A stretch of DNA of 64,000 bases from the IMG/VR virus record IMGVR_UViG_3300036766_000678, positions 116,417 through 180,416 of that record. One strand, 5' to 3'. The notes below the pieces were generated by a model, which saw only the letters and a list, made by a program, of their open reading frames with translations, was not told the origin of the DNA and did not search any database. This DNA is from a virus. Shown here piece by piece: positions 5,823 to 63,990 of this stretch (its first letter is position 1; every line of letters starts with the position of its first letter). The translations under genes were made by a program, and so were the position numbers.

Positions 5823-6473
5823 TTATTCCTCAACAATTCCCTTAAGCAAATTTCGAGCCTTATTCAAACTTGTTTCAACATTAAAATTCTTGATTTCATC
5901 CCATTCTTCATCTGTCAATTCTTTCTTAGGAGGTATTGCTTCCTCAGTAACATCGTGTAAAGAAGGCTGCTCTGGGATTTGTTCCCATTCTTTTTTAGGA
6001 ACATATTGATATTTTTTCTTTGGTTCTAAAGGAACATTAACTTGTTTTGGTTTTTGAACAGGTGCTTGCCTAACTCGTTTAGGAGCAACAGGAGTCTTTG
6101 TTTTTGGTGCATATTGTGGTGTTGAAATACTTGTGTCGGTGTTTCCATATGAATCAACACGAACATCAGACAAGTTTGGGCCAGAGACAATCAATGTACA
6201 ATTAATATCGCCTGGATGCGATTTTTCGAATAAGGGGGCCGAAAAATTTAAACCCCCTACAAAATCTTCTATATTCCACTTTTGACGATTTAGATCGACG
6301 CAACGTGAGTGCCTAGACGCGCCTGAGTCCCATTCTACAATCTGATACCCCTGGGAAGCTAAATCTTCCAATACTGGTAAGGACATATCCTGACGAGTAT
6401 TTCCTACAGCCTGTTTATTTAGCCTGTTTATTTTTTGAGCTTTTTCGGCTAGTTTTTCTTCCCAATTGGTCAT
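5823..6473 (-). CDS. MuF-like minor head protein
   Basis: W...C..L...APLFEKSHPGDINC resembles the MuF C-terminal HPxCxC region; lies between portal and protease. Confidence 0.4.
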   Translation of the reverse strand: MTNWEEKLAEKAQKINRLNKQAVGNTRQDMSLPVLEDLASQGYQIVEWDSGASRHSRCVDLNRQKWNIEDFVGGLNFSAPLFEKSHPGDINCTLIVSGPNLSDVRVDSYGNTDTSISTPQYAPKTKTPVAPKRVRQAPVQKPKQVNVPLEPKKKYQYVPKKEWEQIPEQPSLHDVTEEAIPPKKELTDEEWDEIKNFNVETSLNKARNLLKGIVEE

Positions 6474-6702
6474 ATTTTAGTTCCAAATATTCGAGATTAT
6501 CACTTGTTAAAAAATTAGGGCATTTACAATCAAAATTTGGTCTTGGATTACTTAGAATTTTTATCCACAAGCAGGGCTTCTTCCCTTTTCGTGAACAGGT
6601 AGCGTGATCAAAACGTGAATGCTTGCATGTTCGGCACCTATCTCTATTTGTTTCTTCTACTATTTGCATGTACCCTGAAAAATTATATGTTTTGCTTATC
6701 AT
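6415..6702 (-). CDS. Small Cys/His protein with DNLxYLE tag
   Basis: CRTCKHSRFDH...CKCPNFLTSDNLEYLELKY. Confidence 0.75.
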   Translation of the reverse strand: MISKTYNFSGYMQIVEETNRDRCRTCKHSRFDHATCSRKGKKPCLWIKILSNPRPNFDCKCPNFLTSDNLEYLELKYDQLGRKTSRKSSKNKQAK

Positions 6703-6895
6703 AAAGGTACTCTAAATACTTCAAGTTCTCTTTAGGTAAAAATTCTGCACATTTACAAGCTAGAGTAAAATTCTTAAAAGCCATATAAATACATTTACCT
6801 GGTTTTTTATCCACATCAGTATGACTTAAAAAATAATGTTCACAATTCCTGCACAATTCGAAATTAAAAATATTCTTAATTCGTCTAATTGGCAT
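6683..6895 (-). CDS. Small Cys/His protein with DNLxYLE tag
   Basis: CRNCEHYFLSH...CKCAEFLPKENLKYLEYLY. Confidence 0.75.
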   Translation of the reverse strand: MPIRRIKNIFNFELCRNCEHYFLSHTDVDKKPGKCIYMAFKNFTLACKCAEFLPKENLKYLEYLYDKQNI

Positions 6896-7161
6896 TATCT
6901 TCCAGGCTCATTGTACCCATGTTCAGCCAAAATCTTAGAAGCCATTTTAATTAAATTATAATTTTTATCTTTAACACTACGTTCAAATTGTTTAAATGCT
7001 TGTTCATTTTGAACAGCCATACGAGCACAATCTATAGAAAATCCCATAAGCTGTGTAAGCAAAGAACCCATTAATATCGGGATATTAAGCTCTTCTTGCC
7101 CATCAGATCCTACGATTAAATATTCATCTTCTTTTTTTGGTTTCTCTTGCATAATACCCAC
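6895..7161 (-). CDS. Hypothetical protein
   Basis: SD-like AAGGA upstream; tightly packed in the operon. Confidence 0.6.
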   Translation of the reverse strand: MGIMQEKPKKEDEYLIVGSDGQEELNIPILMGSLLTQLMGFSIDCARMAVQNEQAFKQFERSVKDKNYNLIKMASKILAEHGYNEPGR

Positions 7162-7200
7162 CTTATCTTATCCTTTTAATTAAGTTAAATGACTAAAAAA

Positions 7201-7253
7201 TCGTATATAAACAATATTCCCTATATACACCACTTTTAGTTATATTTTTACAT
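7201..7253 (-). promoter_or_regulatory. Conserved 53-bp intergenic element, copy 1 (candidate late promoter)
   Basis: 47/53 identical to 20935..20987; minus-strand core ATGTAAAAATATAACTAAAA. Confidence 0.6.
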
Positions 7254-7276
7254 CAAAAACAATATTACCTACTACG

Positions 7277-7513
7277 TTACTTTGTAACTGAAAAACCTAC
7301 TGCTTCCAACCTTCCAATTAATACAGACAAATCATCTGGCCCGTAATCCACGACCCCAATTTGCTTGATAGCAGTATGAAGATCGTCAATTGTCAGTTGT
7401 TTTTTGGGCCATTGTTTCAATAAAATCTCTGAAATATAATTAGGGTCTATAGTGAAACCACCATATTTAATTACTTTCAATTTATAGGAACTTCCAATCT
7501 TATTTAATGCCAT
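7277..7513 (-). CDS. Small protein sharing an N-terminal leader with the prohead protease
   Basis: MALNKIGSSYK versus MSLQKIGSSWK. Confidence 0.65.
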   Translation of the reverse strand: MALNKIGSSYKLKVIKYGGFTIDPNYISEILLKQWPKKQLTIDDLHTAIKQIGVVDYGPDDLSVLIGRLEAVGFSVTK

Positions 7514-7514
7514 A

Positions 7515-61857: not shown

Positions 61858-61946
61858 TAGTGTCCTCTTTTCTCAATTTACGCAAAATTTTATCAAGCTC
61901 TTTATGAAGAGCATCCCGAAGGTATCTCTTATGCAAAGCAGATACT

Positions 61947-62534
61947 TTAGCTTGAAGTTTGATTATTATGATTTTCTTTGTTGGCATCTTCTGGTTCTCC
62001 ATTTACATTGCCTAAAGCAGCATCAATTTTATCCGAGATCTGTTGAGCCGTATTCTCAATTACTTGTGCTTTAATTTCAGCTTTTAAATCTTCTGTTTCA
62101 ATAGTATCAAATAATGGCTCATCTTCAGTTACTTCCACAGTAGATGAAATATCTTTGTTGATTGCCCGAAGCTTTTTTTGTTTTTGTCTACCCTTTTCCA
62201 ACCATTTAAGAGATTTTTCCCTATCTCGTTTCTTTTTGTTTCTGGCATAAAGCCAAGTAGAAAATCCTGTTCCTGCAATCTTTCCCAAAGTATATAACAC
62301 ATAAGGTATCAATTTAAAATAATTATGGATTCCAGAATGCCAAGTTTCCCAAAATTGAATAAGTACACCGAAAAGAAATACGTACATAAAAAAATCAATA
62401 ACCTGATTGAGCGTACTATATAAAATTGTACTCCACAGCTTTAGCCTCACGGAAACCAATTTTTCCCAGGTATCCAAATGCCATTCCGCAGCCCCAACAA
62501 GAAAAAATATAATTGAAAGTTCAAATGTTGTCAT
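61947..62534 (-). CDS. Multi-pass membrane protein with a charged tail
   Basis: Three hydrophobic segments. Confidence 0.6.
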   Translation of the reverse strand: MTTFELSIIFFLVGAAEWHLDTWEKLVSVRLKLWSTILYSTLNQVIDFFMYVFLFGVLIQFWETWHSGIHNYFKLIPYVLYTLGKIAGTGFSTWLYARNKKKRDREKSLKWLEKGRQKQKKLRAINKDISSTVEVTEDEPLFDTIETEDLKAEIKAQVIENTAQQISDKIDAALGNVNGEPEDANKENHNNQTSS

Positions 62535-62809
62535 TTTACCTTTTGCTTCTGTTCATACAGTTTTTGCAAGTATTCTAAATTTCCAAACTTAAAATAATGA
62601 TAACTATCTAAATTAATACTCTTACTAAAAGATGATAATTTCTCAGCACATGCCCAACAAATAGATTTAAAATTCTTACTTACATTATTTCTAACTTCAT
62701 GATCTGCTTTCCAATGCCCACATCTGCACTTGTCTGTACTTAAAGCCTCCATTATTTTAAAGGCAACACTGAATCCACTTTCTCTTTTCTCTTCAAAAAA
62801 GCTTTCCAA
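62531..62809 (-). CDS. Small Cys/His protein with tag
   Basis: CRCGHWKADH...FKFGNLEYLQKLY. Confidence 0.72.
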   Translation of the reverse strand: MESFFEEKRESGFSVAFKIMEALSTDKCRCGHWKADHEVRNNVSKNFKSICWACAEKLSSFSKSINLDSYHYFKFGNLEYLQKLYEQKQKVK

Positions 62810-63360
62810 TACTTTTCACTCCATTTACCATTCTTTAAGCGAACAACACCATTGTATGCTATAATAGCTTTCTTATAATCTTTCCATCGTTGATATTTCC
62901 CACTCAAAACTCTAAAAGCCATTTTAGTATTAGTATTAACCCCATAAAAGTATTTTTTAACTCCATATGCTTCAAATTCATCTGGCATAATTTGAAAAAT
63001 ACCTTTTTCTCCAGAAGTTCCTTCCTCGAATTGTCTAAATTCTGATTCAAGCCAAGCCATGGCGATAAAATCATTTCTAGTAAAGGGTCCATTGGGGAAA
63101 AACTTTGGCATATTCAAATCAATAGCTTTGAGCATTTGTATAACAACTTCTTTGTTTACTTTAGTTTTTTCTTTCAAAAGAAGTTGGCTTAAAACAATAG
63201 CTTGTCCTTCATAAGTAAGATTTTCATGCAATTCCGTCGCTTCAGAATAAGACCGCACTCTAATAGATGCATCTTCCCCAATAATAAGAGAAGGAGTAAA
63301 CAAAATAAGACTAAGAAAAGCTAATTTAAATTTCATTTTATTATCCCAGTTGGATAGCAT
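62752..63360 (-). CDS. SLT-like lytic transglycosylase with an N-terminal signal/anchor
   Basis: AMAWLESEF, GIFQIMP, AIIAYNG. Confidence 0.8.
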   Translation of the reverse strand: MLSNWDNKMKFKLAFLSLILFTPSLIIGEDASIRVRSYSEATELHENLTYEGQAIVLSQLLLKEKTKVNKEVVIQMLKAIDLNMPKFFPNGPFTRNDFIAMAWLESEFRQFEEGTSGEKGIFQIMPDEFEAYGVKKYFYGVNTNTKMAFRVLSGKYQRWKDYKKAIIAYNGVVRLKNGKWSEKYWKAFLKRKEKVDSVLPLK

Positions 63361-63545
63361 TTTTTATGTCTAATATAATCTCCTATACGAATATAGTCGA
63401 TACCAGAAATTGTTTTAAAAAAATTAACCTGCTTACCACAATAGAGACAATTCTGGCACCAAGGCTTGCCGTCTACTGTGAAAACTGGTTTCTTTTGACC
63501 TTCTGTCAAATTATTCAAATCCATTTTATCCTCCCTCTTTGTATA

Positions 63546-63586
63546 AGTATATCAGAAGTTGAATAAAAAGTCAAGGGCTATTTTTC
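63546..63586 (-). promoter_or_regulatory. Sigma70-type promoter with extended -10
   Basis: GAAAAATAGCCC-TTGACT-N17-TATACT, followed by GAGGGAGG SD. Confidence 0.78.
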
Positions 63587-63615
63587 TAAAATCGCATCTA
63601 TTTTACGCACTGCTT

Positions 63616-63990
63616 TTACCTCTTTTTCTTTAGTTTATTCTTTAATTCATCCATAGCGGATAAAAACTCTAAATTATTTAATACTTCAATATCAAGGGAA
63701 ACAACAAAATAAGGCCCCTTCACCCCATCCCAATATTCTTGTTCAGTAATTTCAAATATTTTAAAATAACACTTAGCTTTGTTCTTCTTAATAATCCGCC
63801 TAAAGTAGCTTGATTTTAATTTCGCAGTTTGATCAAAAAGAATAATATCTCCTATTTGAAATTTATTTTTGTATCGCACAGGAACAACAATACATTCTCT
63901 TGATTTATGCCCAAAATAAAAAGGGCTTGGAGGAACAAATCGAACAGAGAAATAACATCCTTTTACTCGTGTATTATTTCGAAAATTCAA
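63616..63990 (-). CDS. Hypothetical protein with a degenerate tag
   Basis: Ends VLNNLEFLSAMD. Confidence 0.5.
   Translation of the reverse strand: MNFRNNTRVKGCYFSVRFVPPSPFYFGHKSRECIVVPVRYKNKFQIGDIILFDQTAKLKSSYFRRIIKKNKAKCYFKIFEITEQEYWDGVKGPYFVVSLDIEVLNNLEFLSAMDELKNKLKKKR

Follow-up and report, generated by a model that had tools for sequence, protein, structure and literature searches.

Introduction

The internal proteins IPI–IPIII of phage T4 carry a capsid targeting sequence (CTS) of about ten residues (PMC9026906). In T4-type phages, non-coding promoter–terminator DNA motifs, the PeSL cassettes, lie at gene borders (PMC2839356). In Bacillus phage G, zinc-ribbon genes have expanded to ~35 copies, for which DNA binding has been proposed (PMC7824862; phrog_13559, phrog_4661). 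Gp53 of phage SPO1 is a phage-encoded adaptor-like protein of ClpCP (PMC6873191). Here we describe a peptide tag, DNL[E/K]YLExLY and variants of it, found close to the C-terminus of many small genes of a virus (IMG/VR record IMGVR_UViG_3300036766_000678, 180,416 bp), and analyzed in the final 64 kb of this record (the window, GC content 34.5%). It is a real possibility, and the reading we prefer, that the tag forms a short amphipathic helix by which proteins dock onto one common intracellular partner. Genome records are referred to below as G000 (the genome under study), G001 and so on, and loci as L followed by a number.

Closest in logic appears to be the T4 CTS, since in both cases a short peptide is common to small, divergent, variable phage proteins and can sit on unrelated bodies. 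The T4 sequence, however, is N-terminal, is cleaved by the prohead protease, occurs on three genes and has a demonstrated function, whereas the tag is C-terminal, occurs on ~50 genes per genome and overlaps the start of the next gene. No shared cleavage site was seen on either side of the tag, where the tails are variable, and the tag fails both the position and the cleavage features of the CTS. PeSL cassettes are likewise short dispersed repeats at gene borders to which accessory-gene exchange maps, but the tag repeat is coding and conserved only as a peptide and a start codon. SPO1 Gp53 provides a model of how a protein-handling machine can be redirected when a small viral protein docks on it; it is, however, a single gene aimed at a host protease, and the comparison is by analogy, docking of the tag being a proposal. 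In phage G, 36 zinc-ribbon paralogues end in a common helix, W-K-E-N-D-[RK]-Y-L-x-K-I-L (L117, i.e., phage G 352,500–371,500; L116:11154–13127), which gets no mention in the available part of PMC7824862. The two viruses thus share expanded small zinc proteins with one common C-terminal helix, but the phage G scaffold and tail sequence are different and no start overlap was seen there. None of 133 tagged members matched phrog_13559, and the tag-family profile finds nothing in phage G.

Searches of Pfam, PHROG, NCBIfam and PDB sequences gave no family match for the tagged scaffold proteins (the best, phrog_1311, was hit by 5 of 133 members), and literature searches for the motif, or for C-terminal tags common to several phage proteins, returned nothing relevant in open papers. 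An earlier note on this DNA, made from its letters alone, had recognized no described family, and this agrees with our searches. The tag is undescribed in the searched libraries and open papers; it is a variant of the shared-address-peptide idea, plus a dual-coding junction.

The tag ends small genes throughout the genome

Nearly all genes of the window are on the minus strand. The genome was scanned with a weight matrix in all six frames at a cut-off of 14, with five shuffles as a control. The scores were bimodal: 46 copies scored at least 20, 25 of them in the window, one more scored 13.9 and the rest no more than 10; the five shuffles gave 0–1 matches at the cut-off. The genome total is 46–47 copies, all on the coding strand and 14–28 residues before the stop. 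The 26 minus-strand open reading frames (ORFs) that the earlier note had called tagged were found at their positions, in clusters at 6.4–9.1 kb (six), 26.0–27.6 kb (three), 36.6–39.2 kb (seven), 41.4–43.3 kb (four) and 59.8–64.0 kb (four), and singly at 46155 and 48420. The tag is real, and more abundant than first described. The 26th copy (63616) is degenerate, has no orthologue and is the sole doubtful member. A loose zinc-type Cys/His skeleton is present in 20 of the 26, as had been proposed, and six have unrelated bodies. Two gene models were changed: the ORF at 59804, taken for a 22-aa stub, is a 57-aa skeleton gene with an inferred TTG start at 59977, and the start of the ClpP-like gene is 38212, not 38233.

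The tagged genes and two of their neighbors are listed below in window coordinates (−, minus strand; "holds" means that the start codon of the next gene lies within the tag; entries with no further remark come from the weight-matrix scan).

6415–6702, −: Cys/His small gene with tag; holds start (6473) of a 216-aa gene, an arrangement kept in five relatives
6683–6895, −: Cys/His small gene with tag; holds start (6702) of the tagged gene that follows
8189–8410, −: Cys/His small gene with tag; the next gene's own start lies past the stop
8379–8624, −: Cys/His small gene with tag; holds start 8410; in relative L025 the orthologous neighbors lack this unit between them
8584–8928, −: Cys/His gene with Thr-rich N-terminus and tag; holds start 8624
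8921–9118, −: Cys/His small gene with tag
25996–26193, −: Cys/His small gene with tag
27280–27477, −: Cys/His small gene with tag; in the predicted structure the tag is helix 51–63
27443–27649, −: Cys/His small gene with tag; holds start 27477
36585–36779, −: Cys/His small gene with tag; the next gene has a strong Shine–Dalgarno of its own
36757–36963, −: Cys/His small gene with degenerate tag; holds start 36779
37077–37322, −: Cys/His small gene with tag
37394–37573, −: Cys/His small gene with tag
37583–38212, −: ClpP-like peptidase restricted to this clade, with invariant Ser101 and His124 and with Asn in place of the Asp; candidate partner only
38196–38477, −: non-zinc 93-aa body with tag; G001 orthologue also tagged
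38470–38718, −: Cys/His small gene with variant tag
38992–39168, −: Cys/His small gene with tag; holds start 39011
41390–41863, −: 157-aa member of a widespread phage family; the tag is an extra terminal helix (138–155) found only in this clade
42053–42517, −: peptide deformylase; start inside the upstream tag, ATG here and GTG at the same register in G001 and G002
42501–42671, −: Cys/His small gene with tag; holds start 42517
42652–42840, −: Cys/His small gene with tag; holds start 42671
42840–43250, −: non-zinc 136-aa body with tag; three orthologues tagged
46155–46427, −: non-zinc 90-aa body with tag; two orthologues tagged
48420–49124, −: 234-aa repeat-containing protein with variant tag; G003 orthologue tagged
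59804–59977, −: Cys/His small gene with tag; TTG start, inferred; holds start 59829
61119–61310, −: Cys/His small gene with tag
62531–62752, −: Cys/His small gene with tag
63616–63990, −: non-zinc ORF, degenerate tag; membership doubtful, and the start, being at the contig end, uncertain

The tag is selected as a peptide and predicted to be helical

The core of the peptide is D-N-L-x-[YF]-[LI]-E, plus a hydrophobic residue or Lys at residue 9. Selection on the peptide, argued in the earlier note from five different Leu codons in the first five copies (a correct count), was upheld: at codons 1–9, copies with the same residue share codons no more often than genome usage predicts, and in the three genomes on which the check was run synonymous sites are saturated, the proportion of synonymous differences (pS) being ~0.9–1.0 against ~0.12–0.15 for nonsynonymous ones (pN), where pN is partly circular and the saturated pS is what counts. 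The terminal position is also marked, with 229 copies in six records lying 10–40 aa before a stop versus three to four comparable internal matches in 202,696 positions.

These data bear on whether the conserved element is DNA only (a recombination site, a promoter or a ribosome-binding region), with the peptide incidental. The Tyr10 codon, TAT in 42 of 43 copies, and the gene exchanges that map to the tag (see below) speak for such an element. However, codons 1–9 are synonymously saturated, which largely refutes it for these codons, copies occur only in frame, at gene ends and on the coding strand, there is no promoter excess (63 versus 66 expected), and copies coupled to a downstream start show no codon shift towards a Shine–Dalgarno sequence. 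We therefore consider this explanation hardly credible and reject it. Selection for a fortuitous Shine–Dalgarno in coupled tags was rejected because there is no codon shift, and a slippage frameshift at residues 9–10 because the copies have no slippery codons in common there.

The tag was predicted to be helical both in a skeleton protein and in the 157-aa protein, in line with the helix suggested earlier. In the skeleton-protein model (pLDDT 63, pTM 0.31, modeled without metal) it forms the only clear helix and the rest is low-confidence; in the AlphaFold model of the 157-aa protein (pLDDT 93) it is a separate terminal helix. On a helical wheel, Leu3, residue 5, Leu6, residue 9 and residue 10 share one half. 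Fold searches with the low-confidence scaffold model gave no usable match (TM 0.44 to FAM221; best Z 2.0), which is not proof of a new fold.

The tag is portable between protein bodies

As the earlier note had supposed, the tag can be found on unrelated bodies. Outside the clade, proteins of the 157-aa family end after the last Cys and have no tag, whereas in ~thirty clade members, down to ~40% identity, the tag or something close to it is present; the tagged non-zinc bodies likewise retain it in orthologues across the clade. Skeleton genes without the tag also exist, and the helix is thus not obligatory to the fold.

One can imagine that the metal-binding domain uses the helix for its structure or for self-association, and that non-zinc fusions arose by recombination and retain the helix for oligomerizing with other tagged proteins or for stability. 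Consistent with this, ~80% of copies follow the last Cys pair at a nearly fixed spacing, and the common helix of the phage G paralogues is part of their family profile. On the other hand, there are scaffolds without a tag, orthologous non-zinc proteins keep it, and it is better conserved by far than every scaffold position bar the ligands. This explanation is therefore unlikely. Three proteins (P0002, P0020 and P0046) have two tags each, one of them internal, as though two units had been fused. A 614-aa protein, P0110 (L027:5001–6845), has six similar Cys/His scaffolds, each followed by a different repeated peptide, E-A-A-T-K-K; the tag is not present in it.

Tagged proteins longer than 300 aa numbered 0 of 300, and a membrane-like segment was found in 5 of 291 small tagged proteins versus 175 of 1,080 untagged ones. 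Such a restriction to small soluble proteins agrees with the docking helix proposed below and also with capsid targeting, in which the prohead would take up tagged proteins that then enter the next cell together with the DNA. T4 internal proteins follow this path by means of a 10-residue leader, which is also a short common peptide on divergent small proteins (PMC9026906). About eleven copies lie among head genes, too. Yet most copies are in non-structural regions, the tag sits at the C-terminal end and no cleavage site common to the copies was seen beside it, the genes of this kind in T4 number three and not ~50, and two head-region proteins have a different common N-terminal leader that could fill the role, so that capsid targeting appears rather unlikely. 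No tagged gene was found in the 38-kb tail and baseplate region (G000 63,000–101,000; L004–L006), and there is an equal gap in G001.

The end of the tag overlaps the start of the next gene

Tyr10 is encoded by TAT in all 33 copies in which G follows (p 0.007), which creates T|ATG in the +1 frame. In G000, 23 of these 33 ATGs open a frame of at least 40 codons, against 17.5% of comparable ATGs in other genes (p 9e-9, a broad control). When six records are pooled, 66 of 78 do so and stricter small-gene controls are 26–35% open; P-values from pooled genomes count orthologous junctions repeatedly. A start within the tag is backed by homology for the deformylase, a helicase, a YspA/SLOG-like gene and the 216-aa head-region gene; the ClpP start does not lie within the upstream tag. 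The next ATG or GTG is located exactly at +28 from the first base of the tag in 74 of 229 tags, and residue 10 tracks the start codon, being Tyr, His, Asn or Asp with ATG and Ser or Cys with GTG. In three genomes the deformylase start is fixed at +28 while residue 10 varies. The last Tyr is thus mostly the footprint of the next gene's start, and residues past the tag are often the next gene read out of frame. The core of the tag described in the earlier note holds as a peptide motif; its final Tyr does not hold as a pure peptide position, the overlap having been missed.

Strong Shine–Dalgarno sequences are found at 11% of the overlapped starts (versus 71%). This, the +28 peak, the constant register of the deformylase start while residue 10 changes with the start codon, and the fact that all tags lie within tunnel length of the stop would fit a translation-coupling device instead of a binding tag: the nascent chain, still inside the ribosome tunnel, would act in cis to favor re-initiation where the next gene starts within the tag. 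A sister clade with its own tag variant also has welded starts: 35 of its 59 tagged genes overlap the next start by four bases, compared with 46 of 259 other small genes. But the core is conserved to the same degree when the next gene starts in the tag (median 23.0) and when it has its own strong Shine–Dalgarno (22.6), and as well where no protein gene closely follows. Moreover, the register slips among orthologues (+28, +31 and +37) and differs in the sister clade, where overlapped starts have normal Shine–Dalgarno strength. Regulatory nascent peptides of the SecM/TnaC type have a fixed register to the regulated site and depend on the downstream gene; the tag has a strong +28 peak but shows slippage and conservation without coupling. 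A role of the nascent chain is distinctly unlikely.

The tag is also where gene exchanges fall. At a conserved site, the same downstream gene is preceded in relatives by one to four tagged genes, which differ and form a chain in which starts lie inside tags. In one close pair, the tag and the downstream gene are almost identical and the bodies before them, one zinc and one non-zinc, are unrelated; the DNA becomes alike from the first codon of the tag on; another pair of relatives differs by one whole tagged unit. At variable tag positions, pairwise likeness is 0.53 for copies with a shared body, 0.43 for those with a shared downstream gene and 0.32 for background. Judging from these few close pairs, crossovers probably occur in and beside the tag, and recombination may have caused both the overlap and the exchanges. 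Such crossovers would explain the spread and terminal position of the tag and why its tails vary. They would not explain peptide conservation, since this is equal with or without an embedded start.

The tag is limited to one phage group

In this group of large uncultured phages, ~one gene in six ends with the tag. A profile built from 37 members matched 1,219 protein clusters (at 50% identity); among the best 150 of these, 148 are tagged. Nine related phage records have 5–68 copies each; those whose terminase is 62–67% identical have 58, 68, 19, 32 and 5. Among 19 further records ranked by AAA ATPase identity, the family is present only in the five nearest, two of which form the sister clade. 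Its variant, D-N-L-x-[YFL]-[IV]-E-x-L-A-K-x-[RK]-x-L-[VI]-stop, has a fixed end and occurs on 28–34 genes per record, with no start at +28 in either record. G011, a complete 193-kb sister genome, shares the core genes but lacks both the tag and the skeleton genes, and its proteins have no other tail in common. A search of species genomes with the DNA pattern gave 30 single matches, internal or chance-like and none in arrays, and no relative of the tagged proteins was found in cultured phages. Among cultured phages, only Bacillus phage G has a terminase that matches over nearly its full length (29.6% identity over 84%). The flank of a provirus-classed record, checked as a route to the host, proved to be more phage.

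A proposed docking helix for a common partner

A peptide that is selected for itself, uniform within a clade, different between clades and present on an all-or-none basis is what one would expect of a ligand for one reader. We propose that Asp-Asn caps the N-terminus of the helix, that Leu3, Tyr/Phe5, Leu/Ile6 and residue 9 would form one face, with Glu7 invariant, and that the tail may bind one common partner inside the infected cell. The tag would thereby convert small soluble proteins into adaptors with a constant tail and a variable head. About four fifths of the heads would be a Cys/His scaffold, presumably metal-binding, with hypervariable loops, and the rest unrelated folds; heads would engage different targets, and the tail would bring them to one hub. 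The F-box-like tails of poxvirus ankyrin proteins are analogous docking tails. At the DNA level, the end of the tag is welded to the next start (T|ATG, 28 nt from the first base of the tag, with no Shine–Dalgarno, or a 4-nt overlap in the sister clade), and crossovers in or beside it could swap bodies and neighbors while the next gene stays translated.

Several observations weigh against the docking helix. Tagged genes occur in both head-gene and replication regions, and thus no single time of action is implied. Because the scaffold model is of low confidence, the helix may pack on the scaffold. That membrane and large proteins go untagged may just reflect which genes are accessory, and the gene-content comparison draws on one tagless complete genome only.

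That comparison points to the ClpP-like peptidase, and the tag could be a degron or a loading signal for it, with or without the PAN/CDC48-like AAA ATPase, timing the removal of accessory proteins. The link with the co-located ClpP raised in the earlier note is equivocal: the gene is present in tag-bearing G000, G001, G002, G004, G009 and G010 and missing from tagless G011, but a member of this ClpP family also occurs at locus L236, whose gene order is G011-like, and there none of the genes within 10 kb upstream is tagged, although this stretch is rich in tags in tagged phages. In four genomes the gene directly upstream of ClpP is tagged, and the AAA ATPase is conserved; however, G011 retains this ATPase without tags, and ~ten other genes, less suggestive than ClpP, are likewise missing from the tagless genome. 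The extreme C-terminal residues, constrained in ssrA-type degrons, are unconstrained in the main clade. A degron is very unlikely. ClpP as a sufficient explanation was rejected because of L236, and the AAA ATPase as a tag-specific partner because G011 keeps it. The ClpP-like protein retains Ser and His and has Asn in place of Asp, as does Listeria ClpP1. Its family is confined to the phage group, with ~118 homologues at 41–74% identity and then a drop to ~30%.

The docking proposal can be extended to a self-assembling adaptor library, where the 30-nt junction would be docking peptide, start signal of the next gene and crossover point at once and, in the boldest form, the nascent peptide would drive re-initiation; this extension is rather unlikely. 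Most genes of large phages are small and unexplained, and here one seven-residue signal groups 15–25% of all genes in a clade. If one partner were found, dozens of genes per genome and more than 1,000 protein clusters would be placed in a single pathway. Since phage G is cultured and has an analogous common tail on 36 genes, the general question is testable now. A selected peptide combined with a start codon and an exchange point is also a concrete route for building and shuffling arrays of accessory genes.

Other features of the window and its relatives

The window also encodes a terminase, intein-bearing head genes, RNA ligases, DNA polymerase A, RecA, the PAN/CDC48-like AAA ATPase, the ClpP-like peptidase and peptide deformylase. 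Inteins are present in two head-region genes, the AAA ATPase and an RNA ligase (window 1114–5820 and 9118–13107; L002:16198–18669; L003:12212–14326), and many free-standing HNH-like genes start with a common Cys-x2-Gly-His. An N-terminal leader containing K-I-G-S is common to two unrelated head-region proteins (window 1114–5820 and 7277–7513), and a similar one opens proteins in G003 and G011; it is a possible head-targeting signal. The 48420–49124 protein has low-complexity Leu/Trp/Asn tetrapeptide repeats, in the same place as Leu/Tyr/Ser repeats of its G003 orthologue.

Translation-related genes are numerous in the phage group and differ by member: deformylase, a methionine aminopeptidase-like protein, PTH2, an RF-1-domain protein and ribosomal protein S21 (L118:15379–15783, L121:11821–12180, L236:7061–7372, window 42053–42517 and G000 64045–64818). 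Three tRNA genes were called in G000 (60949–61040 and 111536–111862), one of which, with anticodon TAT, lies within a coding area and is doubtful. A tagged gene is located directly upstream of the tRNA cluster in G000.

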